Shown in pieces: positions 1-35,689 of a stretch of 35,689 nt of DNA. Position numbers and translations under genes: made by a program. Below the pieces are notes generated by a model. That model saw only the letters and a program-made list of their open reading frames with translations, did not search any database and had not been told where the DNA came from. This DNA is from a virus. Lineage: Duplodnaviria; Caudoviricetes. The DNA lies in the IMG/VR virus record IMGVR_UViG_3300046710_000082, positions 1-35,689 of that record, one strand, 5' to 3'. The first letter of the stretch is position 1. Every line of letters begins with the position of its first letter.

Positions 1-127
1 CAAAGGCGGTCTGGTGGACTGAGGACGAGCGCTACATGGCATTGTTCCGCAAGCATACGCACAATTGGCACGTCAAGGTGTCCATCATCACGCTGGATGA
101 AGCGAAGGCGCGTGTGATTGAGCGTGG
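1..127. repeat. Terminal direct repeat, left copy (assembly overlap of a circular or permuted genome)
   Basis: Bases 1-127 are identical to 35563-35689. 127 is a common assembler k-mer size and the repeat falls mid-gene. Confidence 0.95.
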
Positions 128-887
128 TTGCCCTTCGCCACAGGAACGGCTCAGAGCAATAGCGAACCTGACCAAGAACGGCATCCATGTCACCTTGCGG
201 CTACGTCCGTACATCATCGGCGCTTCAGAGGACTATGCACGTCTGATTGCGTCTGCTCACGAGAGTGGAGCGGAAAGCATCACGGCTGAGTATTTCTGCC
301 TTGAAGGACGAGCAGACCAGAAACTGTGCCAGCGGTATGACGCGATGAGCAAGGTGCTGGGCTATGACATCCACACCTTCTACAAGGAAAACAGCAAGCA
401 GCAGGGCTACAAGCGCCTGAGCCGAGCAATCAAACTGAGCGTGTTCCTCTCCATGCGCGAGATAGCACATTCGTATGGGATGCGCTTCCTCTGTTCGGAC
501 GCGCACGGGCGCGACCTGAGCGATGACGTGAACTGCTGTGGCGTACCAATGGCTTGGGGCTGTAGCCAGACGTGCCATTTCGGCGGCGCGATTGAGTTGG
601 CGAAGAAGAATGGAAGCGTGGCGTACTCAGAGATTGAGCCAGACATCAAGCGCCTGTTCTCCTTTGGTTGGGTACAGGCTGCGAACTTCAACACCAGCAC
701 GAATGAAGCACGGGCGGTGTTCTATGACACGCGCATGAGCGAATGGTTTCGGCACGTCTGGAACACCGTCAAGGACGGACGCTCTCCTGCGCGTGGCTAT
801 GGGCGTGTCCTTACGGCAAAGGGCAGAGACACGAATGGCGATGTCGTCTACAAGTACACGGGAGTGAACAATGCCAAAGAGGATTGA
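1..887 (+). CDS. C-terminal part of a radical SAM protein (spore photoproduct lyase / Rv2578c-like); continues from 35154 across the circular junction, 431 aa in total
   Basis: In frame with the ORF starting at 35154 via the terminal overlap. ERGCPSPQERLRAIANL..GIHVTLRLRPYI resembles the EPxAPSPxERL..GIxVxxxxxPII segment of SPL-like rSAM proteins. Confidence 0.85.
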   Translation, partial: KAVWWTEDERYMALFRKHTHNWHVKVSIITLDEAKARVIERGCPSPQERLRAIANLTKNGIHVTLRLRPYIIGASEDYARLIASAHESGAESITAEYFCLEGRADQKLCQRYDAMSKVLGYDIHTFYKENSKQQGYKRLSRAIKLSVFLSMREIAHSYGMRFLCSDAHGRDLSDDVNCCGVPMAWGCSQTCHFGGAIELAKKNGSVAYSEIEPDIKRLFSFGWVQAANFNTSTNEARAVFYDTRMSEWFRHVWNTVKDGRSPARGYGRVLTAKGRDTNGDVVYKYTGVNNAKED

Positions 888-5816: not shown

Positions 5817-6767
5817 ATGGCATACGCAGGTAGCGGTGTGGACAATGCAGATGTCCTTGCATTGCTCCGTGAAGAGTTTGCTCCACAGATTATAACAGGC
5901 GCTCTGGAAGAGTCGGCAGTTCTGCCTCTCTCCAAGCGTCTGCCTGACTTTTCCAAGTACAAGGAAAAGATGGCGGTGCTTGACACGCTGGTCACCGCAT
6001 ACTTCCCTGATGCCGCTAGCGATTTGCCTGGGGTCATCACGACCAGCACAGCGGCATGGGCGAACGTGTACCTGTACGCTGAGAAGATTGCCGCAATCGT
6101 GCCTATTCCCAAGGACGCGATTGAGGACAGCGACTATCCGATTGAGGATGCGCTGATTCCCGCAATCAAGGAAGCAATGGGCTACGCGATTGACTGCGCC
6201 ATCATCCACGGCACAGGCAAGCCCACCAACTGGCCAGCCGCTCTTTACACCACCATCAACGCAGCAGGGCAGGTGGTTTCTGAGGCTGGGTTCACCGACC
6301 TGTATGACGCGCTCTACAAGAGCACGGGCTGCTTCGGGTTGGTTGAGGCTGACGGGTTCTCAGTCACGGGCGCTCTGGTCATGCCTTCCATGCTTTCGGA
6401 GTTCAGGGAGTGCCGTTCTTCAACAGGCGCGGCAATCTTCATCCCTACTCCTGCTGAGAAAATCAAGTACAGCGTGAACGGTGTGCCGCTCAACGTGGAC
6501 AACCGTGGCGCTGTCGGAGCCGCCAACAGTCTCCTTGGAATCTTTGGAGACTTCAAGCAGTTGGTCTATGCCATCCGCAAGTCCATGACGTTTGAGGTTC
6601 TGAAGGAAGCCACGCTGGTTGTTGGCGGCGACACCATCAACCTTGCTCAGCGCGATATGATTGCCCTGAAGTGCACGGGCAGACTTGGCTGGGCGCTTCC
6701 GAATCCCGTCAACAGACTTCAGGTGACTGCTGCCAACCGCTGCGCGTTCTCAGCCCTGACGGCATAA
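5817..6767 (+). CDS. Major capsid protein (HK97 fold)
   Basis: 316 aa with KIAAIVPIP.DAIEDS, AIDCAIIHGTG, GDF and NLAQRDMIALK motifs; AGGAGG RBS. Confidence 0.92.
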   Translation: MAYAGSGVDNADVLALLREEFAPQIITGALEESAVLPLSKRLPDFSKYKEKMAVLDTLVTAYFPDAASDLPGVITTSTAAWANVYLYAEKIAAIVPIPKDAIEDSDYPIEDALIPAIKEAMGYAIDCAIIHGTGKPTNWPAALYTTINAAGQVVSEAGFTDLYDALYKSTGCFGLVEADGFSVTGALVMPSMLSEFRECRSSTGAAIFIPTPAEKIKYSVNGVPLNVDNRGAVGAANSLLGIFGDFKQLVYAIRKSMTFEVLKEATLVVGGDTINLAQRDMIALKCTGRLGWALPNPVNRLQVTAANRCAFSALTA

Positions 6768-6777
6768 GGAGGTTGAT

Positions 6778-7350
6778 ATGGGTTGGTTTCCATTCAATCC
6801 CAATATTGGTCGGTGGATTCAGGGCTTCAACTCATCCACATTCCTGTCACGACTGAAGGTTGTGGCTGAGTATCACCAGAAGCCTGTGCTTGGTTCCACC
6901 AAGACCGTACACGCAACGCTGACCTGTGGTGAAGCGATTGTCACGACCACAACCGCAATCACTCAGCCTGATGTTCCACGCAACCTTGTCCTCACTGGCA
7001 ATGTTGGTGCGAATGAGGTTGTCAGAGCCAACGGACTGAACGCGGCTGGTGTCGCGTTCTATGAGGACTTCACGCTGAACGCAACCACTCCGATTGTCGG
7101 AGCCAAGGCATTCAAGACAGTTGTGAGCATCGTCACTCCCATCGGCACTCACACGGTTGATATCGTGTGTGGCAACGTGCTGGGGCTGGCTCACAAACTG
7201 GCGTATGACAGTGCACTCCTGAAGCGCTTTGACAACGGCACGGATACAGGCACGCTGGCTGTTTCAGCAACTGTGCTTGAATCCAACACGTTTGCCCCTT
7301 CGGGAACGCTGAACGGTTCCAAGTACGTTGACCTAGCATACTTGGTGTAA
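6778..7350 (+). CDS. Putative head decoration / structural protein
   Basis: Thr/Val/Gly-rich beta-type protein right after the capsid gene, strong AGGAGG RBS, followed by a hairpin. Confidence 0.6.
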   Translation: MGWFPFNPNIGRWIQGFNSSTFLSRLKVVAEYHQKPVLGSTKTVHATLTCGEAIVTTTTAITQPDVPRNLVLTGNVGANEVVRANGLNAAGVAFYEDFTLNATTPIVGAKAFKTVVSIVTPIGTHTVDIVCGNVLGLAHKLAYDSALLKRFDNGTDTGTLAVSATVLESNTFAPSGTLNGSKYVDLAYLV

Positions 7351-7363
7351 CAACCAAGCCAAC

Positions 7364-7394
7364 GGAGCCGCTTGCGTCAACAACAGGCGGCTCC
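7364..7394 (+). terminator. Stem-loop after capsid/decoration genes (attenuator or mRNA stabiliser; no U-tract)
   Basis: GGAGCCGCTTG (7364-7374) pairs with CAGGCGGCTCC (7384-7394), with one G-U pair. Confidence 0.55.
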
Positions 7395-7414
7395 AATATC
7401 CATTGGAGGCATCC

Positions 7415-7645
7415 ATGCTTATCAAGTTCCTGAGACGCCACCTGTCCTATGAGCCGAACAGTGTTCACGACATAGAGGATGAGGTGGCGTTCCTGTATGT
7501 TCGGAATGGGCTGGCAGTTCCTGCTGAATCAAAGACACCGCCACCTGTCGTGACCGTTGACGAAGGCATGAAGTTCCCTGACCCTATCGTCACGGTGCTT
7601 GTGAAGAACAAGGGCGGCAGACCGCCAAACAAGCCAAGGGCGTGA
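7415..7645 (+). CDS. Small head-region hypothetical protein
   Basis: GGAGG RBS, ATG 7415, C-terminal basic GGRPPNKPRA tail; typical position between capsid and adaptor. Confidence 0.65.
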   Translation: MLIKFLRRHLSYEPNSVHDIEDEVAFLYVRNGLAVPAESKTPPPVVTVDEGMKFPDPIVTVLVKNKGGRPPNKPRA

Positions 7646-7646
7646 G

Positions 7647-8129
7647 ATGTCGTACACGTCTGTCCTTGTGGTTGGAACAAACTCCTATGTGACTGTTGCG
7701 GAAGCGGCAGCCTACTTCACCCTGCGCTTGGATTCGGCAGAGTGGACAGAAGCGACTGATGCCGACAAGGATGCGGCGCTTGCGATGGCGTGCAAGGCGA
7801 TTGACCGCTTGCCGTGGGCTGGGTACAAGTATCAGCCCGATTATCAAGTGCTGGCGTTCCCAAGGGTTGCCGCCTTCGCTGACGGAGATTCTTGGACGAT
7901 GCTTGGCGTTGTTCGGCAACAGGTGAGAGACGCTCAATGTGAGGAAGCCCTTGCGATTCTCAGGCATCAGGCTGACACACGGCTGGAACTGATGCGGATT
8001 GGGTTGACGGGCGCTATGATTGACGGCGCTTCTGAACAGTACAAGTCGGACGCAGGACAGGGGCTGTTGTCTGTTCAAGCCAAAGAACTCCTGCGGCCTT
8101 GGTCAACCGATGTTGTGGACATGATATGA
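7647..8129 (+). CDS. Head-tail adaptor (DnaT-like family)
   Basis: NSYVTVAEAAAYF, QVLAFPR and VRDAQCEEA motifs; neck position. Confidence 0.8.
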   Translation: MSYTSVLVVGTNSYVTVAEAAAYFTLRLDSAEWTEATDADKDAALAMACKAIDRLPWAGYKYQPDYQVLAFPRVAAFADGDSWTMLGVVRQQVRDAQCEEALAILRHQADTRLELMRIGLTGAMIDGASEQYKSDAGQGLLSVQAKELLRPWSTDVVDMI

Positions 8130-8623
8130 TTGAGACTTCTGACATCTCCAAACAGATAGCGGCAAGCGTGGCGGTGCTGCGAAAGACCCTGCCCGATGTG
8201 TGCTACGCGGCGCTGATTGACACGGCGATTGAGATTGAAGGAGCCGCCAAGACGAATGTGCCGCACAAGACAAGCAATCTTGCCAGAACCATAACGCATG
8301 AGGGCGATAAGCCGACTATGACCGTGATAGTGGGAACAAACACGGAATACGGTCCATATGTAGAGTATGGCACGGGCATCTTTTCCGAGTTCCCATCGGC
8401 TCCGAAAACGCGCATCGTACCAAAGGTCAAGAAGGCGCTTTCATGGCTCTCAGGCGGTGAGCGAATCACTGTGAAGTCTATCGCAGGAATGACACCAAGA
8501 CCTTTCCTCAGACCAGCCTTTCTTGCCAAGGGTGAGAACTTCGGCAAGAACGTGGACTATGAGATGACCAAGCAGAATATCGCACAGAACGCGCAAGAAT
8601 CGGCAAAGAAGGCATCCAAGTGA
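8126..8623 (+). CDS. HK97 gp10-like tail completion protein
   Basis: AKTNVPHKTSNLARTI, VGTNTEYGPYVEYGTG and GMTPRPFLRPA motifs. Confidence 0.88.
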   Translation: MIETSDISKQIAASVAVLRKTLPDVCYAALIDTAIEIEGAAKTNVPHKTSNLARTITHEGDKPTMTVIVGTNTEYGPYVEYGTGIFSEFPSAPKTRIVPKVKKALSWLSGGERITVKSIAGMTPRPFLRPAFLAKGENFGKNVDYEMTKQNIAQNAQESAKKASK

Positions 8624-8964
8624 GAACTGTTGATTTGGTCACAGCCTTGAAAGCAGGAACGCCACCTTGGGGCAATCGGGTGTATATTACAAAGCCCGAT
8701 GCGGTCAGGGTTCCTCTGGTCATGGTCTATCCGCTTTCCCGTGTGCCGAACAGCAACTACGCCAAGCCCGATGACAAGGAGTTCTTTCACAGGGCGCAGT
8801 TCCAAGTGGAATTGTACACAAAGGTTGAGACAGTGGCAACCGAAAAGGCAGTCATAGACAGTCTTGCGGCAGTCAAAGGAGTAGTGACCATATCGGGCGC
8901 TGTCTACCAGCACGATTCCGATGTGTTGAGAACCATCTATACAGTTGTAACAACAGGAGGATGA
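8620..8964 (+). CDS. Tail terminator protein (putative)
   Basis: 114 aa with FQVELYT strand, between the gp10-like gene and the tail tube gene. Confidence 0.65.
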   Translation: MRTVDLVTALKAGTPPWGNRVYITKPDAVRVPLVMVYPLSRVPNSNYAKPDDKEFFHRAQFQVELYTKVETVATEKAVIDSLAAVKGVVTISGAVYQHDSDVLRTIYTVVTTGG

Positions 8965-8965
8965 A

Positions 8966-9529
8966 GTGCCTATCACGAATCTCATAGAGAGTCTTGGCGT
9001 TGGCCCCATCATTGACGCTGAAGTCAAGGTTGGCGCAGTTTACACGGCGCTCCTACAGCTTCAGGACATCAAAGGCAAGGCCAAGTTCCTGAACGCAAAG
9101 GGTGTTGGCTTCAACACCTTCGCACTTTCCGCAAAACCCGACACGGTTGACCTTTCCATCATTCAGGGGTGTCTGGACGTCACAGCGCTCCGAGTTCTGC
9201 TAGGACAGGCGGCAATCGGCACGGCAGGAACCACGCCAAGCATCGTGGAAACACAGGCGTTCAAGGCAACGGCGCTCTGCCCGTACTTTGAGTTGTGGGT
9301 ACGCTCCACAGACATCACAGGGCTGGGAACGCTTGGCGTGTCTGACGCACTCCCTGCTGATATGTGGACGCACTTCCCAAAGTGCAAGGTCATGGATGTC
9401 GGCAACATCATCCCATCCGTCAAGGACTACGCAACGGTGGAATTGACCGTTGAAGCCATCGTTGATGCGTCTGATATTCTGTGGGAGTATGTGACCCACG
9501 AAACCAAGATGGCTCTGCCCTCAGCCTGA
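8966..9529 (+). CDS. Major tail tube protein (putative)
   Basis: 187 aa beta-rich protein with GGAGG RBS, preceding the chaperone and tape measure genes. Confidence 0.7.
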   Translation: MPITNLIESLGVGPIIDAEVKVGAVYTALLQLQDIKGKAKFLNAKGVGFNTFALSAKPDTVDLSIIQGCLDVTALRVLLGQAAIGTAGTTPSIVETQAFKATALCPYFELWVRSTDITGLGTLGVSDALPADMWTHFPKCKVMDVGNIIPSVKDYATVELTVEAIVDASDILWEYVTHETKMALPSA

Positions 9530-9828
9530 TGAACGCAGAAGATTACAAGCACCGCAAGGAACATCTGACCTTTCCAAGCGGCTTGGAACTGGACATCACT
9601 CCACCCTCAGCGCTGGATTTGCTTGACGCTATCAGTGACGCTGAGGGTGACGGGATGAAGCGTATCAAGTCCATCATGGAGTTGCTTGGCAAAGGATTCC
9701 CTGAAGGGTTCACACCCTATGACATCAACGACCCGAAAGATGTGATGTTCATGGTGGAGTATGTTGAGAGTTTTTTCGGAAGAATCGCGCCACCAGAATC
9801 CCAAGAGAGTTCAGAGAGTTCATCCTGA
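9529..9828 (+). CDS. Tail assembly chaperone (gpG-like)
   Basis: ATG overlaps the tail-tube stop (TGATG); acidic 99 aa; contains a slippery site near its end. Confidence 0.75.
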   Translation: MNAEDYKHRKEHLTFPSGLELDITPPSALDLLDAISDAEGDGMKRIKSIMELLGKGFPEGFTPYDINDPKDVMFMVEYVESFFGRIAPPESQESSESSS

Positions 9829-9992
9829 CCATGTTTCAGCAGTTCGGTGTGATGCCGCATGAGTTCCGAAGCCTGAGCGCTGATGACTGGGCTTTTGATA
9901 TGGAGATATTCACATCAAGAGCAGACAACCTTGAGAAGTGGAGCGAAGCGGCTGTAAAGCGGCTGGAAGAGAGGTTGCGAAATGGGCGTTGA
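9771..9992 (+). CDS. -1 frameshift extension of the tail chaperone (gpGT-like)
   Basis: In-frame slippery heptamer T TTT TTC at 9771-9777. The -1 frame is open to TGA 9990-9992 (..FREFILTMFQQFGVMPHEFRSLSADDWAFD..) and fills the gap to the tape measure gene. Confidence 0.8.
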   Translation, partial: FFRKNRATRIPREFREFILTMFQQFGVMPHEFRSLSADDWAFDMEIFTSRADNLEKWSEAAVKRLEERLRNGR

Positions 9993-11271
9993 ACAGACAA
10001 TAGGCATCTGGTACAAGATGTTTGGTGACCCCAAGGGCGCCAATGATGCTCTGGACAGTGTTGGCAAGAAGGGCAACCAAGTCGGAGCCATCATCAAGAA
10101 GGCGCTTGCGGTCATCTCCGTAGCGGCTGTTGGTGCGTTTGCAAACGCCTGTATCAACGCACAGGCTGAGAGTGACAGAACAGCCGCCATGCTCAACAAC
10201 ACCCTAAAAAGCGTGGGCGGCGCAACCGACAAGGTTGTTGCGTCCACAGAAGCGTGGGTTGACAAGATGGAGATGGCGAAGTCCTTTGATGATTCCCAAA
10301 TCCGTGCCGCGCTTCAGTCGCTGACAATCAAGTATGGTGATGTGGAGACGGCTCAGAAGGGCGTGACCGTTGCGATGGAAGCGGCACGCGCAAAGAACAT
10401 AGACCTTGCGACAGCCACACAGCAGGTGTATATGGGTTCACAGGGGCTTTCCAAGTCTCTGCGTGACTACGGCGTGGAAGTGGTGAAAGGAACAACCGCA
10501 TCGGGTTATCTGGATAAGATTCTTGGCAAAGTGGCTGGTTCCTCTGATACCTTCAACAAGTCTTTGGATGGCGCAAAGCAACGAATGGCGGTGTTGAAGG
10601 ATAATGTGATGGAATCAATCGGAAGCGCTCTCATGCCGCTTGCCACACTCCTGATGGAGAAACTGGCGCCTGTTGTCAAGAGTGTCATGGAGTTCGTTCA
10701 GAGGAACACGCCAGCCATCCAGAAGGGGCTTGCTTGGCTGGTAGAAACAGTGGGAAAGATGTATGTTGCCCTGAAGCCGACCATAGACGCCATCATTCAG
10801 ACGTTTGGCCCATACGTCAAAGACCTGTTCACATGGCTGGGAAAGCATGGCGGTGACCTTCAGAGTATTCTGGTCAAGGTTGCGGAAGCGATTGGTACTG
10901 CCTTCAGGATTGTCGCATCGGTCATCAAGGCAATCGTTGATTCCATCGCATGGGTTATCAACAACGCCAAGAAGGTCATTGACTTCCTCACACCAAACAC
11001 AAAAGCGGCAGACACAGCCTTTGGCGTGTTTGCACCGTCAACAAAGGGTGCAGTGCCACACGCTTCAGGCGGCTGGGCTGGTCTGAACGGGCCAGAACTG
11101 TCTCTGCTGGGTGAGCGTGGGCCAGAGCGCGTCATGAGCAACAAGGAAGTTGTTGACAACAGCGCTTCCCTGAACAACATCGCAAGGAAGTTGGACACGC
11201 TCATCTCTGTCACGGTTCAGATTCCGTATGGCATCGGCTCTGCCCTGAATGGGATAGGAAGGTCAATATGA
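9982..11271 (+). CDS. Tape measure protein (short, 429 aa)
   Basis: Ala-rich helical protein with periodic W/F repeats and C-terminal HASGG..GPE..GERGPE motif; canonical position. Confidence 0.88.
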   Translation: MGVEQTIGIWYKMFGDPKGANDALDSVGKKGNQVGAIIKKALAVISVAAVGAFANACINAQAESDRTAAMLNNTLKSVGGATDKVVASTEAWVDKMEMAKSFDDSQIRAALQSLTIKYGDVETAQKGVTVAMEAARAKNIDLATATQQVYMGSQGLSKSLRDYGVEVVKGTTASGYLDKILGKVAGSSDTFNKSLDGAKQRMAVLKDNVMESIGSALMPLATLLMEKLAPVVKSVMEFVQRNTPAIQKGLAWLVETVGKMYVALKPTIDAIIQTFGPYVKDLFTWLGKHGGDLQSILVKVAEAIGTAFRIVASVIKAIVDSIAWVINNAKKVIDFLTPNTKAADTAFGVFAPSTKGAVPHASGGWAGLNGPELSLLGERGPERVMSNKEVVDNSASLNNIARKLDTLISVTVQIPYGIGSALNGIGRSI

Positions 11272-17329: not shown

Positions 17330-17659
17330 ATGAGTTCAGCATGGAATATTCTTGTGGGATTGCTTGTCACCGTCATCACCTTCCTGTTCTCTCAGTGGAG
17401 CATCAAGGGCAAGTATGAACCGATTGGAACCGCCTTGAAGGGTGTGATGGCGATTGTCGTTGCGTTCATCCTGTCCGTTGTTCAAGGGCTGGTCACAGGA
17501 GAGGTTGTCTGGAACACCGTTTGGGCTTCCCTTCCTGCGATTGTCGGATGGGCGATGGGCTTCTATGGTGTCATCATCAAACCGATAGACAAGGCGGTTG
17601 AAGCCGCCAAAGCCACCAAACCTACAACTGATGATTATATCAACCCGAAGACCAGCTGA
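17330..17659 (+). CDS. Holin (putative, three hydrophobic segments)
   Basis: AAAGGAG RBS, 109 aa, three TM-like helices, charged C-terminus, adjacent to the endolysin. Confidence 0.75.
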   Translation: MSSAWNILVGLLVTVITFLFSQWSIKGKYEPIGTALKGVMAIVVAFILSVVQGLVTGEVVWNTVWASLPAIVGWAMGFYGVIIKPIDKAVEAAKATKPTTDDYINPKTS

Positions 17660-17900
17660 CCGTGCAACCGAATGACCTTCTGCGTGAGGATGCCGACCAC
17701 AACCTGATAGACGCAGATGATATAGTCATCGTGGAACGTGCGAAGTTTACAGCCGTGTCGTGGGCTGCTTGCGACCTGTGAAACAAGGGCAAACGTGCTG
17801 AATGGGCTGACAGAGCCACGTTCATAGCCAGCGCTGAGGTCATCTCTAATAAGGGTGAACCCGTACCAGCATAAGGCGCTGGCAGTCACACACTCTCCGC

Positions 17901-17925
17901 AAAGCCCCTGTACGCCGGGGGCTTT
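17901..17925 (+). terminator. Intrinsic terminator ending the late operon
   Basis: AAAGCCCCTG-tacgc-CGGGGGCTTT hairpin between the lysis genes and the first early promoter. Confidence 0.7.
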
Positions 17926-18012
17926 CTGCTTGTCCTGAACAGCGTCTCATCAAATAAGAATATATTATGAAGGGCGTCCAGGGCTGTTGTCGGCTACAGG
18001 CGCGGTGAGGGC

Positions 18013-18040
18013 TTGACATAAAAACTTTATACGCTATTAT
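18013..18040 (+). promoter_or_regulatory. Sigma70/SigA-type early promoter
   Basis: TTGACA-N16-TATTAT in an AT-rich intergenic region at the start of the early module. Confidence 0.7.
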
Positions 18041-18045
18041 TTAGG

Positions 18046-18300
18046 TGTGGCTGATAACTGCAGCATCTGAAAGACGCGCCTTGAAAGGAACCGCGAAGGT
18101 CAAGAAGCCCAAAGAACCACCAAAGGCACCTTCTGAAGCGGCCAAGCACTCCGAGTGCTGGTGGAATTCCTGCAGTGAAAGCAGTGTGGGCAATCCAGCA
18201 GAGAGCGTGACGACCACGAATGAATTGAACGGAGCCGCTGTCCTGGGCAGTTGGCTCCTTTGAGTTCACTCGCAAGAGCGCTGAGGCGCAAAGGAGACGG
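18046..18300 (+). ncRNA. Candidate structured leader / ncRNA
   Basis: About 250 nt between the promoter and the first RBS, with nested stems (ACTGCAG/CTGCAGT, CCACCA/TGGTGG, long hairpin 18221-18268) and several GNRA-like loops. Confidence 0.5.
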
Positions 18301-18302
18301 TG

Positions 18303-18548
18303 ATGACACGCAACCAGTTGGTCAAGGCAATCAATATCACGCTTGATGAAGGGCTTGTTGACGGCAAGTTCTCTGACCTGTGGCTGGCGCGCATCCAGAC
18401 GTTGCATGGGATGGCGCTTGATTCCGCAGACTGTGTGGTGAAGGAAGGTGGCTGGAAGATGGTGGCGGCGATGAAGGCCTGGGATAAGGGCAACGATGAC
18501 ACGGCACTTGTGGCGGCGCTCAGAAGCGTCAAGGAGATGCTGATATGA
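18303..18548 (+). CDS. Hypothetical early protein
   Basis: CAAAGGAGACGG RBS; first ORF of the early operon. Confidence 0.7.
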   Translation: MTRNQLVKAINITLDEGLVDGKFSDLWLARIQTLHGMALDSADCVVKEGGWKMVAAMKAWDKGNDDTALVAALRSVKEMLI

Positions 18549-19093
18549 CCAGATACGGATTCAGGTGTACGCTTGCACGGCTTGGCTTTGACCTTGACCA
18601 CGACACTGATTCAGCGATTTGGGAGCCTTGGATTGCACAGCGTCTTTATGAGGCTGAGAAGTCCATCGGTCTGCAAAAGGCTGTCATCCGTGTGCGCTCT
18701 GCGATTCGGATGTACGACATGACCAAGGATGCACCGCACGCCAAGAACCACTTGGCAGCGGCAGTCCAAGCAGTGAACCTCAATCTGGCTCAGAAGTCCT
18801 GCACCACATTCGCAACAACGTCAAAGGAGACAGCCGTGAAGACAATCAAAGTCAATCTGTCCGTAGCACAGAAGCAGGAACTGAAGGACGCAATCACTGG
18901 TCTGAAGCGCCTTCTGAACAAGAGCGTTCCATTCACAGCCTACAGTGCCACATGGGAACTGTACGGTGTCTACAGCCACATTGGTTCAGTCTACTTCGCT
19001 GTGCGCGACACGGCAGAAGCGGACAAGAAGGCGATTGAGGCTGGTGTTGCCGCCATGAGGGTTGAGGACACGGCAAACCTCACGAGCAAGTAG
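18545..19093 (+). CDS. Hypothetical early protein (possible internal in-frame start at 18836)
   Basis: ATGA coupling; an internal CAAAGGAGAC precedes an in-frame GTG at 18836. Confidence 0.65.
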   Translation: MTRYGFRCTLARLGFDLDHDTDSAIWEPWIAQRLYEAEKSIGLQKAVIRVRSAIRMYDMTKDAPHAKNHLAAAVQAVNLNLAQKSCTTFATTSKETAVKTIKVNLSVAQKQELKDAITGLKRLLNKSVPFTAYSATWELYGVYSHIGSVYFAVRDTAEADKKAIEAGVAAMRVEDTANLTSK

Positions 19094-21668: not shown

Positions 21669-21871
21669 GCATCCCGATGGCGTTCAAGACCCTGAGAGAC
21701 CACGGGTTTGTGTGTGACGTGACCACGGGCTGGTGTGAGAAGCATCAGCCCGATGGGGCTGTCCTGTTTATGAATCCGTACATTGTCACGGCTGAGGAAG
21801 TTCGTGGAGACGCTGTAAACGCTAAGGACTACGATGACGCGCTGAGGCGCGTAGAGGAAGGTGTGGCATGA
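21665..21871 (+). CDS. Hypothetical protein
   Basis: AAAGGAG RBS, GTGA overlap. Confidence 0.6.
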   Translation: MSIPMAFKTLRDHGFVCDVTTGWCEKHQPDGAVLFMNPYIVTAEEVRGDAVNAKDYDDALRRVEEGVA

Positions 21872-22935
21872 TTGTGTTTCCTGCTGGTGCGTTGAAGGCG
21901 GCAACCGCTGAAGCGAACATTGGAGCGCAGGTGCGGCTTGTCGGTGATGGTGAGAGCTTCCGCTTGGAAGCGACAAACAATGAGATGTGCGTTGTCTCTG
22001 CTGTCCTGAAGCACAACCCGTGTGACGTTCTTGACTGTGAAGTAGGTAGGGAGATGCTGGGAAAGGTTGCCGCAACGCTCAAAGGCGATGTGGAACTCAC
22101 AGCAACAGAGAGTGCCGTGACCCTGACGGCTGGCAAGGGCAAGTTCACGCTGAGTGTCCTGCAACCGATTCCGCATCCAACATATGAACCCGTGAAGGCT
22201 GGTGAAACGCTGATGCTTGCTCACGATGAGTGGGCTTGGATTTGTGACAACTTGGGAGCCGCAATCAAAGCGCGGCAGTACAACCCGTACAAGGACGTGA
22301 CGGTGTTCCCGAACAAGGAGAGTGTGGACATCGTGGGAACGTCTGGAACCTATATGTGTGGCGTTCACCTTGATGGCGTTCGTAGTCTCAGCGTCAAGCA
22401 CGACCTTCCGCTTGTCCTGTTCAGGAAAAGCCTGATAGACGTGACCCTGACCTTTGGTGAGGATGGTGTGACGGCTTCCGATGACTTCACCACGGTGACA
22501 ATGTTCTATGGCACAGCTGGCGTTCCCGATATGTACCAGACACTCCTTGACCCTGTGGAGTTCGCAACGCTGAAGTTCACAGCGGTTCAGGGTGAGAATC
22601 TGCTTGACCTGACCAAGCCAATCAGAGGCACAGCCAAGGTCAGTCTACGCTGGTACGGCTCTGACGCTGGCGGCTTCACTCCTTGTGTCCATGTGAGCAC
22701 GCTGGAAGCAAGCGACTTGGACGTGAGCGGCGATGTGGAACTTGATGGTCAGTTCGTGGTTTCGGGCATCGTGGAAGGCAACGCGCCTGTCTATACCAAG
22801 GGCTTGCTGAGGGCGCTGAAGGCGATGGAAGAGGCAGAGTTCAGGGTGCTGGTCAGCCCAAGCGCTCAGGTGGTGTTCCGTTCGCTTCATCGGTTCGCAC
22901 TTTTCATGAGGGCAACCGTGAAAGAGCCTGTATGA
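21868..22935 (+). CDS. Divergent DNA polymerase III beta sliding clamp-like protein
   Basis: 355 aa. LEATNNE, GDVELTA..VTLTAGKGKFTLSVL and IVGTSGTYM segments and the terminal ALFMR parallel DnaN (ATDLE, VATDGHRL, LxMP). Confidence 0.6.
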   Translation: MIVFPAGALKAATAEANIGAQVRLVGDGESFRLEATNNEMCVVSAVLKHNPCDVLDCEVGREMLGKVAATLKGDVELTATESAVTLTAGKGKFTLSVLQPIPHPTYEPVKAGETLMLAHDEWAWICDNLGAAIKARQYNPYKDVTVFPNKESVDIVGTSGTYMCGVHLDGVRSLSVKHDLPLVLFRKSLIDVTLTFGEDGVTASDDFTTVTMFYGTAGVPDMYQTLLDPVEFATLKFTAVQGENLLDLTKPIRGTAKVSLRWYGSDAGGFTPCVHVSTLEASDLDVSGDVELDGQFVVSGIVEGNAPVYTKGLLRALKAMEEAEFRVLVSPSAQVVFRSLHRFALFMRATVKEPV

Positions 22936-31490: not shown

Positions 31491-32015
31491 GTGATGGACA
31501 AGTCTTACTTGGATAAGGTTGAACAGGAAGATGAGAACCTACTAACACAATCAGACCAACTGCGGAACAGTCTCATCAAGGAAAACGATGTGTTGCTCAG
31601 GCTTGTCTGCATGGAGCGTGACGGCGGCTTGTGCGTAGTGTGCGGAACCAACCACACACTTCAGGTCAGCCACATCTATCCAAAGGGGCTGTACCCTGAA
31701 TTGCGCTGGAACATAGAGAATGTGGAGATGCGGTGCGTTGGGTGTCATCTGTATCGCAAGGGAAGCCCTCACATGGACCCTGCTGGGTTCGCAGACTATG
31801 TTGAATACACAATGGACAAAGGACGCAGAGACCGTCTGCACCGACTTTCCATCCAGCCGCAGGGTGGAAGCAAGGGAACCCTGTGGTTTACAGAGCAGAA
31901 TGAGGTTCTGAGACACCTGTACCTGTTGGCGTTTGGCTCTCCATACAAGGAACGCAGAGACATTGTGATGAAGGCAAAGAAGAAAGTGAGGACGTGGAGG
32001 AAAGGGAGATTATGA
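31491..32015 (+). CDS. NinG/Rap-like HNH-type nuclease
   Basis: RDGGLCVVCG, SHIYPKG..LRWNIENV..CVGCH motifs. Confidence 0.8.
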   Translation: MMDKSYLDKVEQEDENLLTQSDQLRNSLIKENDVLLRLVCMERDGGLCVVCGTNHTLQVSHIYPKGLYPELRWNIENVEMRCVGCHLYRKGSPHMDPAGFADYVEYTMDKGRRDRLHRLSIQPQGGSKGTLWFTEQNEVLRHLYLLAFGSPYKERRDIVMKAKKKVRTWRKGRL

Positions 32016-32527
32016 GCAGACCGATGAAGATGTGCAGCGTGTGCGGACATCCAGCATTCGTGCGTGGGATGCAAACAGAGAACGGTTGGGTGTGTGGCAA
32101 CTGCCTGATAAAACAACGCGATTCGTGGAAGCGGAAGTTGAGTGTGCCGATAACAGAGCAAGCGAATCGTATGCCGAGCACATGGTTCGCTGAGATTCGC
32201 GTGGACGCAATCACCGCAGACCTTGAAGCGAACGTATGGACGGCTCTGGAACTGGGCTGGCGGTTCCATCAACAACTTGTGGACGATGAGAACACCGACA
32301 AGCGTGCCGTTGGGTTGTGGCTCCTTGAAAACAACGGGCGCTGCGTCTCTGTCATCGTTGTCCTCAACCATGTTGAAGAAGGCAGGAACCGCGTTGGTGG
32401 CTATGTGTACGACCTTGGCAAGCATGGAAGGCACAAGACTTGGGTTGGACGAACCTATGGTCACGGCTGTACCTTCTACGCTGGACGCTTGGAAGTGGCT
32501 TGTAGCGAACAACAGTTGGCTGTATAA
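32012..32527 (+). CDS. Hypothetical protein with N-terminal zinc finger
   Basis: CSVCG..VCGNC; GGGAG RBS; last early gene. Confidence 0.6.
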   Translation: MSRPMKMCSVCGHPAFVRGMQTENGWVCGNCLIKQRDSWKRKLSVPITEQANRMPSTWFAEIRVDAITADLEANVWTALELGWRFHQQLVDDENTDKRAVGLWLLENNGRCVSVIVVLNHVEEGRNRVGGYVYDLGKHGRHKTWVGRTYGHGCTFYAGRLEVACSEQQLAV

Positions 32528-32528
32528 T
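32500..32528 (+). promoter_or_regulatory. Promoter for the candidate small RNA
   Basis: TTGTAG-N17-TATAAT (32500-32505, 32523-32528), about 20 bp upstream of a terminator stem. Confidence 0.6.
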
Positions 32529-32534
32529 ACTGTT

Positions 32535-32582
32535 GCTCGTCTCCTTTGGCTCCTGCTCTCGTCAAGCAGGAGCCGTTTTTTT
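32535..32582 (+). ncRNA. Candidate ~50-nt anti-Shine-Dalgarno small RNA
   Basis: 5' seed CTCGTCTCCTTT(GG) is the reverse complement of the early-gene RBS motif (CC)AAAGGAGAYGRG; bounded by a promoter and an intrinsic terminator. Confidence 0.6.
32548..32582 (+). terminator. Intrinsic terminator at the early/late boundary
   Basis: GGCTCCTGCT/AGCAGGAGCC 10-bp stem followed by G and T7. Confidence 0.9.
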
Positions 32583-32596
32583 ATGCCCTGATTCCG

Positions 32597-32648
32597 TGCT
32601 ATACTATGTATTAGGACAATATCACAGGGTGTGATAAACCTGTGATAT
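32597..32648 (+). promoter_or_regulatory. Putative late promoter (extended -10) and downstream inverted repeat
   Basis: TGCTATACT at 32597-32605; ATATCACAGG/CCTGTGATAT inverted repeat at 32619-32648 abutting the RBS. Confidence 0.55.
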
Positions 32649-32659
32649 AAGGAGATGGG

Positions 32660-33298
32660 ATGATACAAAAGACAGGAGTGGTTGTTGAGACCAAACAGGT
32701 CAAGTTGAAGGACATCCAACTCGCGGCATACAATCCACGAAAAGACCTGAAGCCCGAAGACCCTGAATATCAGAAGATTGCGAACAGCCTGAGAGATTTC
32801 GGCGTGATGGCTCCGCTCATCTGGAACAAGCAGACGGGCAATCTTGTCGCAGGACATCAGCGTCTGAAGATACTGCGGCAGGAGTTTGGGATGACTGATG
32901 AGTCTCATATCACCGTGTCTGTCGTAGACATGGACGAGACGCAGGAAGTGGAAGCCAACATTGCGTTCAACAAGGCGCAGGGCGCTTGGGATTTTGAGAA
33001 GCTGGGTATTGCCATGTTCAAGATTCCGATTGAGGAACGTATCAAGACGGCATTCGACCCACAGGAACTCGCAGTCATCTGTTCGCAGGTGCATGATGAA
33101 GCAGAAGCGTCCTTGAATGCGATAGCAGAGGAACTGTCCAACGATGATGCGGAACTGGCAAACGCAGGAGACAACGTCTCATATGTCATCATGCTCTCAT
33201 TCCCTGAAAAGGAAAAGGCAGAGACATGGGCGGTAGAGCATACGATGGATGTTCGGTTCAAGGCAAACAGCAGGACGCTTGTTGTTCGCATGGAATGA
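32660..33298 (+). CDS. ParB/Srx N-terminal domain protein
   Basis: YNPRKDL..YQKIANSLRDFG..PLIWN..GNLVAGHQRLK motifs. Confidence 0.9.
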   Translation: MIQKTGVVVETKQVKLKDIQLAAYNPRKDLKPEDPEYQKIANSLRDFGVMAPLIWNKQTGNLVAGHQRLKILRQEFGMTDESHITVSVVDMDETQEVEANIAFNKAQGAWDFEKLGIAMFKIPIEERIKTAFDPQELAVICSQVHDEAEASLNAIAEELSNDDAELANAGDNVSYVIMLSFPEKEKAETWAVEHTMDVRFKANSRTLVVRME

Positions 33299-33774
33299 TA
33301 ACCGTGGTGATTGGCGGCTCAGGCTCTGGCAAGACCACCTTTGTCAAGAGCAAGTTCCTTGACCCTCAGTTTCTTATCACTACAGACATCGTTGCTGTGA
33401 CATTGGTGAAAAAGACAAGAACGGCATTCATCGGGAAGTATGGCATCGGCATTCGCACGGAAGGCACAGATACCTTGTCCTATACAGCCATGCCGCGCAT
33501 CAAGCGACAGGTGGAGAAGTTGGACAGAGACGGCTGGAATGTCGTGCTGGAAGGTGATAGAATCAACAACAGGAAGTTCTTTGAGTGGCTTCTGATGAAG
33601 AAGTTTGACTGTCAGTTGATTCTGATGACGGCTCCGCTGGATGTCTGCCTTATGCGTCTGCGTCTCGCAGGTTCGCACATCACCAAGCCCTTTGCAACCG
33701 CAACCGCAACGAAAGCGCGGCATATGTTCCTGACATTCGGTTCGCAGATGAAGGGAGAGGTACATGGAACCTGA
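33295..33774 (+). CDS. P-loop nucleotide kinase, 5-hydroxymethyluracil DNA kinase-like
   Basis: Walker A GGSGSGKTT, IGKY..EGTDTLS and LEGDR motifs; adjacent to an aGPT-Pplase-like gene. Confidence 0.75.
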   Translation: MITVVIGGSGSGKTTFVKSKFLDPQFLITTDIVAVTLVKKTRTAFIGKYGIGIRTEGTDTLSYTAMPRIKRQVEKLDRDGWNVVLEGDRINNRKFFEWLLMKKFDCQLILMTAPLDVCLMRLRLAGSHITKPFATATATKARHMFLTFGSQMKGEVHGT

Positions 33775-34780
33775 TTATCGCAAGGAGCGCTGGGAAGGCT
33801 ACCTGAAGTATCATGCATTGATGTGTCGGACAGGAGACTGTGACCCTGCCTATCCGATGGTGATGTGGCTTGCAAAGAGATTTGCGCTCGACACGGAACA
33901 GCGGTATTGGCTTGCCTTCCTCTACTCCTGCTGTTATTGCCTTCCGACAGCATGGGCGATGTTCACGGCATTCCCATCCTATCAGGAATGTACGGAAGAA
34001 GCATTCGCACGCTATTGGCAATACAACAAGCCGACCCTTCTGTTTGAGACAGACCGCGCAAAGGTCAAGAACTTTGACGCAATCCTGCCAATGCTCGCAT
34101 CCTACAGGAAGATTGTCGGCACAAGTCAGGATGGATTCTACAGACGGGCGGCGTGGAGCGGTTCAGTCATGGGGATGTATGACCCGTATGTTGCCTATGA
34201 GCGTGTCTATGCTGCGTGTTCGCAATTCTACTACTTCGGGCGCTTCAGCTTGTTCCTGCTGCTGGAAGTTGTCAACCTTTTGACGCAACTTTCTATCCTG
34301 CCGAAGACAATGGATTTGCGGCTTGCAGAGAGTCCAAGGAACGGGCTTTGCTATGCTCTCGGAAAGGATGATTGGGTCACGCTTCACTCACGTCTGCCTT
34401 ACAGAAAGATAGATTACAACTATCTTCAGGAGAAGCTGTTGGAATTGCCCGATGCTGTTGCGAAGGCATATCCTGATGTGCCGAACACCATCTGGCGCAT
34501 TGAGACGAGTTTGTGCGGCTACAAGAAACTCTGGTGGGAATCACGCTATCTTGGTTTCTACATAGACCGCGCTCAGGTTGAACTCGCCACGGTTGCGGCA
34601 CGTTATGCCGAGATGGATTGGCAACCAGCTTGGGATTTCAGACGGCGCTATCACCCACAGGCTTTTCTTGGAGAGATGAGCGGCTGGTTCGGTGTGCGTA
34701 AAGAGAAGTTGAGCCTGTTTGCTACGACAGGGAAGTTCTGTCTGGATGAGCCGATTCCGCTTTACAGGGAGACGCTGTGA
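33764..34780 (+). CDS. Amino acid:DNA transferase-like protein (aGPT-Pplase2 family)
   Basis: GDCDP, EQRYWLAFLY, FETDR, FGRFS..LE, PRNGL, ETSLCGYKK and RYLGFYIDR motifs, matching my recollection of this HhH-glycosylase-fold family. Confidence 0.75.
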   Translation: MEPDYRKERWEGYLKYHALMCRTGDCDPAYPMVMWLAKRFALDTEQRYWLAFLYSCCYCLPTAWAMFTAFPSYQECTEEAFARYWQYNKPTLLFETDRAKVKNFDAILPMLASYRKIVGTSQDGFYRRAAWSGSVMGMYDPYVAYERVYAACSQFYYFGRFSLFLLLEVVNLLTQLSILPKTMDLRLAESPRNGLCYALGKDDWVTLHSRLPYRKIDYNYLQEKLLELPDAVAKAYPDVPNTIWRIETSLCGYKKLWWESRYLGFYIDRAQVELATVAARYAEMDWQPAWDFRRRYHPQAFLGEMSGWFGVRKEKLSLFATTGKFCLDEPIPLYRETL

Positions 34781-35181
34781 TAGTTGTGCCGCTGGACTTC
34801 GTGAAAGACCGCAAGGAAGTCAATCAACTCAGCCGTCATTCAGAGAACGCTTCTGTCCATGAAGCGGAGGCATGGATGCGTGCTGTTGAGTTCTATGGCA
34901 AGGCATTTGGCGGCATCATCCACGGCATCGGCTACTACTATGCGACACAGGCAAAGAATCACGTGCGTCTCCACGAGATTGTCGTGAAGGCGTCTCTGCA
35001 AGGATGTGGTTATGGCAGTCTGTTGTGGGAAGACCTATGCTCACGCTCTCGTCTGTTTGGCGTAGAGAGCATCACGTTGAAGTGCGAGTATGAGCCATCC
35101 AAGCGTTGGTTTCTCACACATGGAGCGGAATGCGCGGCAAGAAAAGGAGCGGTATGGGAAATGACGAAACACCTGAACTAG
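34777..35181 (+). CDS. GNAT-family acetyltransferase
   Basis: VRLHEIVV..LQGCGYGSLL acetyl-CoA binding motif A; 134 aa. Confidence 0.85.
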   Translation: MIVVPLDFVKDRKEVNQLSRHSENASVHEAEAWMRAVEFYGKAFGGIIHGIGYYYATQAKNHVRLHEIVVKASLQGCGYGSLLWEDLCSRSRLFGVESITLKCEYEPSKRWFLTHGAECAARKGAVWEMTKHLN

Positions 35182-35689
35182 CCAAAGACTACGCATCACC
35201 GCGCTGGTCAGCCGAGATACTTGACTGTTCCATGCCAATGACGATGGATACCTACAGCCTGTGTTCCTACAACTGCCAGTATTGCTTCTCGTGGTTTCAG
35301 AAAAGCCATGTCCTGACAGGCTATCTGAGCAGGGATGTGCGCGTTGTTGATACGGCAAAGGTCAAGCGACTGTTTGATGGAGCGCTGAACGGCGGCAAGT
35401 TGAACAAGACAGAGCAGCAGTTTGTTCCGTACATCCGAGACAGGAAAATCATGCAGTGGGGGGGCTTGGCTGACCAATTTGACGAGTACGAGCGCAAGCA
35501 TGGCGTAACGCTTGAACTGCTCAGGTATTTTGACAAGATTGACTATCCACTGTCGTTTTCAACAAAGGCGGTCTGGTGGACTGAGGACGAGCGCTACATG
35601 GCATTGTTCCGCAAGCATACGCACAATTGGCACGTCAAGGTGTCCATCATCACGCTGGATGAAGCGAAGGCGCGTGTGATTGAGCGTGG
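35154..35689 (+). CDS. N-terminal part of the radical SAM protein (continues at the start of the window)
   Basis: AAGGAG RBS, ATG 35154; MGNDETPELAKDYASPRW..DTYSLCSYNCQYCF contains CxxxCxxC, then QWGGLADQF and FSTK. Absent from the ORF track because it has no stop before the window end. Confidence 0.9.
   Translation, partial: MGNDETPELAKDYASPRWSAEILDCSMPMTMDTYSLCSYNCQYCFSWFQKSHVLTGYLSRDVRVVDTAKVKRLFDGALNGGKLNKTEQQFVPYIRDRKIMQWGGLADQFDEYERKHGVTLELLRYFDKIDYPLSFSTKAVWWTEDERYMALFRKHTHNWHVKVSIITLDEAKARVIER
35563..35689. repeat. Terminal direct repeat, right copy
   Basis: Identical to 1-127. Confidence 0.95.

Follow-up and report, generated by a model that had tools for sequence, protein, structure and literature searches.

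Cassette and circular genome

The window, as we call the whole stretch of DNA analysed here, comprises the 35,689 nucleotides of the IMG/VR virus record IMGVR_UViG_3300046710_000082 (Duplodnaviria; Caudoviricetes). The subject of the analysis is a DNA-hypermodification cassette beside the terminase genes and, within it, a radical S-adenosylmethionine (SAM) enzyme resembling spore photoproduct lyase (SP lyase; SPL-like), which we propose to be the entry enzyme of the cassette. The phage genome is circular (35,562 bp), a 127 bp direct repeat of the window start closing the window end, and IMG/VR classes the record as direct-terminal-repeat and 100% complete. A metagenome contig (35,592 bp; run X1, possibly the same sample) carries positions 31500–35689 uninterrupted at 6355–10544 and continues beyond the window end. 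Seven plus-strand genes, each overlapping its neighbours, lie across the junction in the order ParB, kinase, amino acid:DNA transferase (ADDT), GNAT acetyltransferase, radical SAM, TerS and TerL.

32547–32575, plus strand: terminator-like hairpin (11-pair stem) with a T run, setting the cassette apart from the upstream genes; weak, with one site against 2.6 expected in shuffled sequences
32660–33298, plus strand: ParB-like helper with an N-terminal ParB domain and a C-terminal domain (Pfam ParB_N, E = 1e-5, slightly below the curated cut-off; PHROG ParB-like, 6e-28)
33295–33774, plus strand: P-loop kinase, a predicted 5-hydroxymethyldeoxyuridine (5-hmdU) DNA kinase (M6 gp54 and PaMx11 gp49 homology)
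33764–34780, plus strand: ADDT of aGPT-Pplase clade 2 (PF18724, 5e-17)
34777–35181, plus strand: GNAT acetyltransferase of a family related to PaMx11 gp48 (PF00583, 2e-6)
35154–35689, plus strand: SPL-like radical SAM enzyme, N-terminal part with CxxxCxxC; proposed thymine C5-methyl hydroxylase
1–887, plus strand: radical SAM gene continued over the junction (1–127 duplicates 35563–35689), carrying the conserved C236, C315 and C316
871–1386, plus strand: probable TerS, from position alone (no family match in Pfam, PHROGs or further model scans)
about 1307–2566 (start at 1289 or 1307), plus strand: TerL (Pfam Terminase_6C, 3e-15; PHROG 979, 3e-104)

An earlier note on this DNA had described an overlapping operon running from ParB to TerL across the circular junction of a complete genome. 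Both points hold: the reading frames overlap, the terminal repeat is present and the radical SAM frame is stop-free from 35154 to 887, encoding 431 residues with CSYNCQYC at residues 37–44. The interval that it gave, 32660–35689, does enclose cassette genes but leaves out most of the radical SAM gene, which lies at 128–887. The same gene order is found in the divergent loci L001, L006, L034, L084, L085 and L093, and the arrangement is therefore not a product of chance. The kinase start at 33295 shares an ATGA with the ParB stop; the alternative start at 33226 given by the ORF tool is less likely. The overlap with TerS and TerL suggests late co-expression, with the DNA modified around the time of packaging; gene position is the single basis for such a coupling, and some loci with radical SAM and ADDT genes adjoin polymerase genes instead of terminase (L003, L110).

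Kinase, ADDT and GNAT

The kinase matches M6 gp54 (28% over 130 residues, E = 2e-5, blastp), and its family profile finds PaMx11 gp49 (1e-9) and M6 gp54 (3e-7) in small test sets. The motifs GxxGSGK[TS]T, G[TC]D and EG are common to all three proteins; the match to Ploopntkinase3 (E = 0.007) has 16.3 bits against a cut-off of 27. The ADDT scores 62.8 bits with PF18724, above the curated cut-off of 26.2. Its ETSLC sequence (E247 and C251) aligns with the ETVLC/ETILC of M6 gp51 and PaMx11 gp46, and in 37 sequences C251 is invariant and E247 nearly so; we took ETxxC to be the mutated catalytic pair of the PMC8989533 text. The model of the ADDT (pLDDT of 95.6) has PaMx11 gp46 as its top Foldseek match (8Z2N; E = 8e-4, TM 0.54/0.62). 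The reading of 33764–34780 as an aGPT-Pplase homologue in the earlier note is thus upheld by score, motif and fold. Section 17 of Lee et al. (PMC8989533) describes a Cys/Glu pair that displaces phosphate from 5-phosphomethyldeoxyuridine (5-PmdU). The GNAT family profile finds PaMx11 gp48 at 3e-14 among five proteins, while the direct pairwise match is not significant.

By homology, the kinase is predicted to be a 5-hmdU DNA kinase and the ADDT to transfer a group to 5-PmdU in DNA. With an ADDT and a kinase related to those of M6 and PaMx11, and a GNAT family related to PaMx11 gp48, the cassette should need 5-hydroxymethyluracil (hmU) in DNA. Variants elsewhere include two ADDT–GNAT fusions (P0022 and P0039) and a 605-residue ADDT with an additional N-terminal domain (P0090).

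Search for a source of hydroxymethyluracil

Two routes to phage hydroxymethyl-pyrimidines have been described: a thymidylate-synthase-type route before replication and an O2-dependent TET/JBP route after it. None of the 72 ORFs of the genome matched a thymidylate synthase, 2-oxoglutarate/Fe (2OG-Fe) enzyme, pyridoxal phosphate (PLP) enzyme, flavin enzyme, methyltransferase or DNA polymerase in Pfam or PHROGs. A search for PF00303 (thymidylate synthase family), taken to E <= 1, had no match in the genome but was positive for 10 of 14 control genomes. A six-frame search with the phage TET profile, M6 gp52, gp58 and gp62 and PaMx11 gp47 and gp51 returned nothing; the TET profile gave 6e-99 in one control record. 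No gene for the dUMP hydroxymethylase of the replication-level route of M6, ViI and PaMx11 was found, and the window showed no glutamine amidotransferase (GATase). A hidden dioxygenase was sought among the 13 unassigned ORFs of the window and is not supported: none of them recurs in the retrieved loci or resembles a dioxygenase. On these searches of all ORFs, hypothetical ones included, we agree with the earlier note that hydroxymethylase, polymerase, TET/JBP, PLP and flavin enzymes are not to be found here, and its picture of a post-replicative ADDT/kinase cassette with no known hmU source is supported.

The radical SAM enzyme

The cysteines of the radical SAM motif (C37, C41 and C44, CxxxCxxC) are invariant in 90 sequences, and four cysteines besides those of the SAM cluster (C25, C236, C315 and C316) are 99–100% conserved in the same set. 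The enzyme matches PA0069- and Rv2578c-type models far below cut-off. With TIGR03886 (spore photoproduct lyase), the two halves of the window protein give no match and the homologue from locus L041 gives 14.2 bits versus 437. The fold was computed on this homologue (pLDDT of 88) and not on the junction-spanning protein of the window; the model contains a partial TIM barrel and matches SP lyase best (Foldseek E = 1e-8; Z of 19.3, r.m.s.d. of 3.0 over 267 residues; next family, 16.2). A PDB sequence search with the radical SAM profile gave nothing significant and no SPL alignment, and a viral fold library returned distant radical SAM proteins only.

Of 7,996 scored proteins, at least 2,063 belong to the family at a threshold of E <= 1e-50; the family is mostly viral, and the name 'putative DNA repair photolyase' occurs among its automatic annotations. 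The DNA of the phage is contained in peat metagenomes (in runs X2 and X3 only as short pieces), and its listed carriers include no RNA data set. Assembly titles, available for four loci only, place radical SAM loci in Selenomonadaceae and Prevotellaceae and TET loci in Saprospiraceae and Sediminibacterium. The peat DNA and these titles are compatible with an oxygen-free route; evidence for anaerobic hosts is otherwise thin.

Some family members are interrupted: an intein-like (Hint) insert splits the radical SAM gene of L021 (5809–8582), and that of L077 (12077–14179), with 700 residues, probably has an insert too. In eight of 80 loci (L199:8243–9046, L201:6243–7097 and six more) the gene immediately after the radical SAM gene is SAM-synthetase-like (PF00438), which is consistent with stoichiometric use of SAM.

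Partners of the candidate entry genes

The set centred on the radical SAM gene was taken as the best 80 of 339 viral loci and formed 59 groups. ParB is present in 50 of these, TerL in 43, the TET-associated glycosyltransferase (TAGT; PF20691) in 32, the kinase in 22, the ADDT in 17, GNAT in eight and TET or hydroxymethylase in none. The TAGT occurs without ADDT in 31 groups, and 51 of the 59 contain an enzyme dependent on a hydroxymethyl base, the source gene being found in none. Nor was PF00303 or TET detected in any of 47 whole virus records bearing the radical SAM gene (27 at least 90% complete; controls positive). On a tree of 65 radical SAM proteins the partner switches between ADDT and TAGT 12 times, partners differ between proteins of 88% identity, and separate ADDT-partner and TAGT-partner clades are rejected (approximately unbiased (AU) test, p = 1e-41). 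Our strongest argument for an entry enzyme is that a single radical SAM family goes with two unrelated types of consuming enzyme, and that the one acceptor known to be used by both is a C5-hydroxymethyl pyrimidine; a tailoring-type enzyme would need activity on both sugar and amine adducts.

The ADDT alignment search gave 168 loci, a search of viral contigs with the single ADDT protein having found no relative. The 163 loci with a callable ADDT formed 85 groups at 90% identity: 22 with the radical SAM gene only, 39 with TET/JBP only, none with both and 24 with neither. Among the 40 groups with at least 3 kb on each side the corresponding counts are 12, 23, 0 and 5. Hydroxymethylase homologues occur in three ADDT loci only, each without radical SAM and TET genes. 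In L132 and L077 the order GATase–ADDT–GNAT–kinase–radical SAM can be set against the TET-type order GATase–ADDT–kinase–TET: the radical SAM gene occupies the slot of TET, and the ADDTs of both loci cluster with the TET-linked clade on the tree. TAGT-anchored loci (80) divide into 36 with radical SAM only, 32 with TET only, none with both and 12 with neither; this search used a nine-sequence subset, the full alignment being too divergent, which biases it towards radical SAM-linked TAGTs, and many of the TET rows are giant viruses. None of 24 TET-bearing records, nine of them near-complete, contains the radical SAM gene.

The GNAT gene travels with the ADDT and not with the radical SAM gene: it is present in 19 of the 39 TET-type ADDT groups and in none of the 28 radical SAM groups in which the glycosyltransferase is the sole partner. 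The earlier note had proposed a new enzyme combination of radical SAM plus GNAT; as a tailoring pair it is not supported, given these counts and the match to the PaMx11 gp48 family, and the radical SAM enzyme behaves as an entry enzyme instead. GATase accompanies 39 of 39 TET-type groups versus 11 of 22 radical SAM-type groups (ADDT-anchored), which suggests that this ADDT subfamily may use ammonia to give 5-aminomethyl-dU, subsequently acetylated to 5-acetylaminomethyl-dU (5-AcNmdU).

Two loci, both from fragments about 25% complete, place the radical SAM gene beside an M6 gene set: in L243 (331–6654) and L200 (9902–14912) it accompanies an orthologue of M6 gp53 (43%), the PLP enzyme gp52 (47–48%), a gp51-like gene and a kinase-like gene. 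As true gp53 orthologues coexist with it, the radical SAM enzyme is not the gp53 isomerase; the window protein is 21% identical to the L200 gp53 orthologue over 203 residues, and blastp against M6 gp53 gave no match at E = 0.01. With these two gene sets, formation of the M6 base would involve no hydroxymethylase.

Other variants were seen around the same genes. L181, L185, L190, L196, L224 and L236 have ParB–kinase–radical SAM–terminase with no ADDT or glycosyltransferase nearby, and their end product might be 5-PmdU. An APH-like kinase, often with a cytidylyltransferase, adjoins the TAGT and radical SAM genes in L210, L213, L233, L235 and L241, probably as a supply of activated sugar or phospho-alcohol. 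A second radical SAM/SPASM gene accompanies the cassette in nine loci (for example L175:3870–4874). Several ADDT loci encode DUF2284 metal-binding proteins (L083:2868–4818, L008:6698–7357, L002:182–697 and L021:13705–14214); three of these four have no TET, radical SAM or hydroxymethylase gene in the retrieved flank, and DUF2284 may be another source of hmU or a helper. In L115, L116, L117, L119 and L120, which were excluded from the ADDT groups, the tblastn ADDT match has no open frame under table 11, possibly owing to a recoded stop or a frameshift.

Comparison with known systems

Clusters with TET/JBP in place of the hydroxymethylase are known (Lee et al., PMC8989533, section 21), and O'Toole et al. 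(PNAS 2026; PMC13229309) describe ParB-dependent T-dioxygenases (5mYOX clade C1) that are associated with GATases, P-loop kinases and ADDTs and often have terminases nearby. The ParB–kinase–ADDT–terminase layout is therefore already known, and the entry enzyme is what differs here. The window has ParB, P-loop kinase, ADDT, GNAT and terminase neighbours in common with those cassettes, as well as the ADDT subfamily and the lack of a replication-level hmdU source; unlike them, it has an SPL-like radical SAM enzyme instead of an Fe/2OG dioxygenase, and no GATase. The word 'radical' is absent from the main text of PMC13229309, and a term search of the Pyle preprint (10.1101/2023.12.21.572611) found no 'radical', 'rSAM' or 'TAGT'. 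Our literature searches found no proposal of a radical SAM enzyme replacing TET/JBP; their coverage ended short of Iyer et al. (2013), the supplements (including the O'Toole datasets) and Figure 2 of Lee et al., which could show such a neighbourhood.

The M6 cluster (gp51, gp52, gp53, gp54 and gp58) likewise combines a kinase, a clade 2 aGPT-Pplase with ETxxC and a radical SAM enzyme of the SPL superfamily. M6, however, replicates with hmdU through the hydroxymethylase gp58, whereas no hydroxymethylase, PLP enzyme or polymerase was found in the window, and its gp53, which isomerises glycinyl-thymine, is of a different family. With PaMx11 (gp46, the flavin lyase gp47, the acetyltransferase gp48 and gp49; proposed product 5-AcNmdU) the window has the ADDT fold and the kinase and GNAT families in common, but no flavin enzyme or hydroxymethylase was found, and its ADDT, 12–13% identical, may use another nucleophile.

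SP lyase (SplB, PDB 4FHC) resembles residues 1–307 of the L041 model in fold and performs thymine allylic radical chemistry on DNA. The identity is only 14%; the present family is longer at the C terminus by about 130 residues, in which a CCG is conserved, stands in a phage modification setting and is proposed to oxidize rather than repair. BchE offers an analogy only, as a radical SAM enzyme using water-derived oxygen in the role of an anaerobic counterpart (PMC10114771); unlike the window enzyme it depends on B12 and acts on a small molecule.

Proposed pathway and alternatives

We consider it likely that the radical SAM enzyme is, in some form, the entry enzyme of the cassette. Probably it hydroxylates the C5-methyl group of thymine in DNA to give hmU without oxygen, replacing TET/JBP. 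For the mostly viral SPL-like family as a whole we lean towards an anaerobic counterpart of TET/JBP, which would hydroxylate the thymine 5-methyl group in double-stranded DNA, drawing the oxygen from water and with help from ParB, feeding either the kinase and ADDT or the glycosyltransferase. The enzyme, probably helped by ParB, would flip out a thymine in replicated DNA; ParB, which lies beside the radical SAM gene in 50 of 59 groups, may be its activator. The 5'-deoxyadenosyl radical would abstract a hydrogen from the C5-methyl group, and the resulting allylic radical would be oxidized by one electron before water adds to yield hmU; a second metal site, held by C25, C236, C315 and C316, may be the electron acceptor. 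We base abstraction from the methyl, one-electron oxidation and water addition on SP lyase chemistry and the precedent of BchE. The thymine lesions that SP lyase binds are flipped out, and the thymine allylic radical of this enzyme is trapped at the methyl once the hydrogen-donor cysteine is removed (PMC3467042); BchE is an oxygen-independent enzyme that incorporates oxygen from water, the counterpart of the O2-dependent AcsF (PMC10114771).

By homology, the kinase would then form 5-phosphomethyluracil, and the Cys/Glu pair of the ADDT, the catalytic residues of which are present, would exchange the phosphate for an amine, most likely ammonia, a small diamine or an amino acid. Acetylation of the free amine by the GNAT would yield 5-acetylaminomethyl-dU or another N-acetylated base of that kind. 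The final base may be the known 5-AcNmdU; the undescribed acetylated base of the earlier note is possible but not required. Nuclease evasion is the likely purpose of the modification.

Several points weigh against this proposal, which is built on sequences and models, with no cultured phage carrying a close relative. SP lyase takes hydrogen from C6 of the lesion and not from a normal methyl, BchE depends on B12 whereas the window enzyme shows no B12 domain, and the SP lyase fold was modelled on a homologue. For the possible second metal site, cysteine conservation is the one line of evidence. No close family member was found among 50,697 GenBank phage records, which gave two weak partial matches. 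The mutual exclusion of TET and radical SAM genes may rest on one to three events: the ADDT tree has three changes between them (TET monophyly not rejected; AU p = 0.36) and the TAGT tree one, so that Fisher values of 9e-8 and 1e-6 overstate it, the counts not being independent because of kinship. Habitat alone could also produce the exclusion. The 24 of 85 ADDT groups with neither enzyme (five of 40 with long flanks) carry no entry gene of either kind, and many 5mYOX-like genes escape Pfam (O'Toole et al., 2026; PMC13229309). Eight of 59 radical SAM groups have no recognised acceptor enzyme, five with a short upstream flank and three with about 10 kb upstream. The 12 partner switches lie below the range for shuffled labels (minimum 14, median 20), so the partner partly tracks the radical SAM lineage. 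As the window has no GATase, free ammonia, a diamine and an amino acid are all candidates for the ADDT nucleophile.

Among other explanations, it is unlikely that the radical SAM enzyme enters the pathway by installing a non-hydroxyl group, such as a thiol from an auxiliary Fe–S cluster, or by handing a reactive intermediate to a partner. Sulfur insertion is known for radical SAM enzymes with extra clusters, and the four extra, almost fully conserved cysteines would fit one. The SP lyase allylic radical can moreover be trapped as a sulfinate (PMC3467042). The kinase and TAGT partners are nevertheless homologues of enzymes that use the hydroxyl of hmU or 5-hydroxymethylcytosine, the C5 methylene must bear a leaving group for ADDT chemistry (PMC8989533, section 17), and the same partners sit with TET or radical SAM alike. 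We attach a similarly small probability to downstream tailoring, in which the enzyme would act as a gp53-like isomerase or stand in for the PaMx11 flavin lyase in freeing an amine for GNAT, while hmU would be supplied by the host, by a helper phage or by a gene that escaped recognition. Such a role would account for a GNAT without GATase in the window; gp53 does belong to the same SPL-like superfamily (profile E = 1.5e-5; both match PA0069-type models), and the 24 ADDT groups without any recognised hmU source leave room for one. It accords poorly with the 31 of 59 groups that pair the enzyme with a glycosyltransferase and no ADDT, with the true gp53 orthologues beside it in L243 and L200, and with the 13 unassigned ORFs, none of which recurs or looks dioxygenase-like. 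We know of no host source of hmU in DNA.

Very unlikely, in our view, is the same entry chemistry on 5-methylcytosine (5mC) or another pyrimidine instead of thymine. C5-methyltransferase genes do lie near the radical SAM gene in L100, L113 and L244, and phage TETs act on 5mC (PMC8256090), yet no methyltransferase was found in the window, only one of 80 radical SAM-centred loci has one, and characterised kinase/ADDT pairs use hmU. Equally improbable is a DNA-repair or packaging accessory beside the terminase, with kinase, ADDT and GNAT as passengers or acting on rare damaged bases. The SP lyase fold, the photolyase annotation and the eight groups without an acceptor enzyme would suit such a role, as would the attraction of the ParB–terminase spot for modification genes such as methylases (L190, L197); against it stand the 51 groups with a hydroxymethyl-base-dependent enzyme and no source for the base, the intact catalytic residues of the ADDT and SPL-family matches far under cut-off.

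Implications

The cassette is real; it varies a known system and probably has an enzyme activity that is new. It represents the kinase/ADDT branch of radical SAM-associated cassettes, beside a glycosyltransferase branch. If the proposed hydroxylation is correct, it would be a third route to hydroxymethyl-pyrimidine DNA, and its O2-independent, post-replicative character would be new DNA chemistry. It would explain how small phages of anaerobes that use the host polymerase shield their DNA from restriction and other nucleases. Many phages of gut, rumen, digester and peat would then carry hypermodified bases that nobody has measured, and modified DNA would extend across a large uncultured phage family, with consequences for sequencing bias and phage–host models. 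The enzyme could also provide a cofactor-distinct labelling tool for thymine or 5-methylcytosine. The compactness of the cassette (five genes, 3.8 kb) and its stepwise products, hmdU, 5-PmdU, an amine adduct and an acetylated base, make the pathway directly testable.

Other features of the genome

A tRNA scan of the window found none, and the matches of a promoter scan were at chance level. The few short minus-strand ORFs are without family matches, and no integrase was recognised. Outside the cassette the genes are those of an ordinary tailed phage, with an SPP1-like portal, capsid, tail, amidase, ERF recombinase and DnaC-like loader. A sliding-clamp-like gene (PHROG 947, 1e-7) is present, and no polymerase was found; these observations refer to window positions 21868–22935 and 17640–18601.

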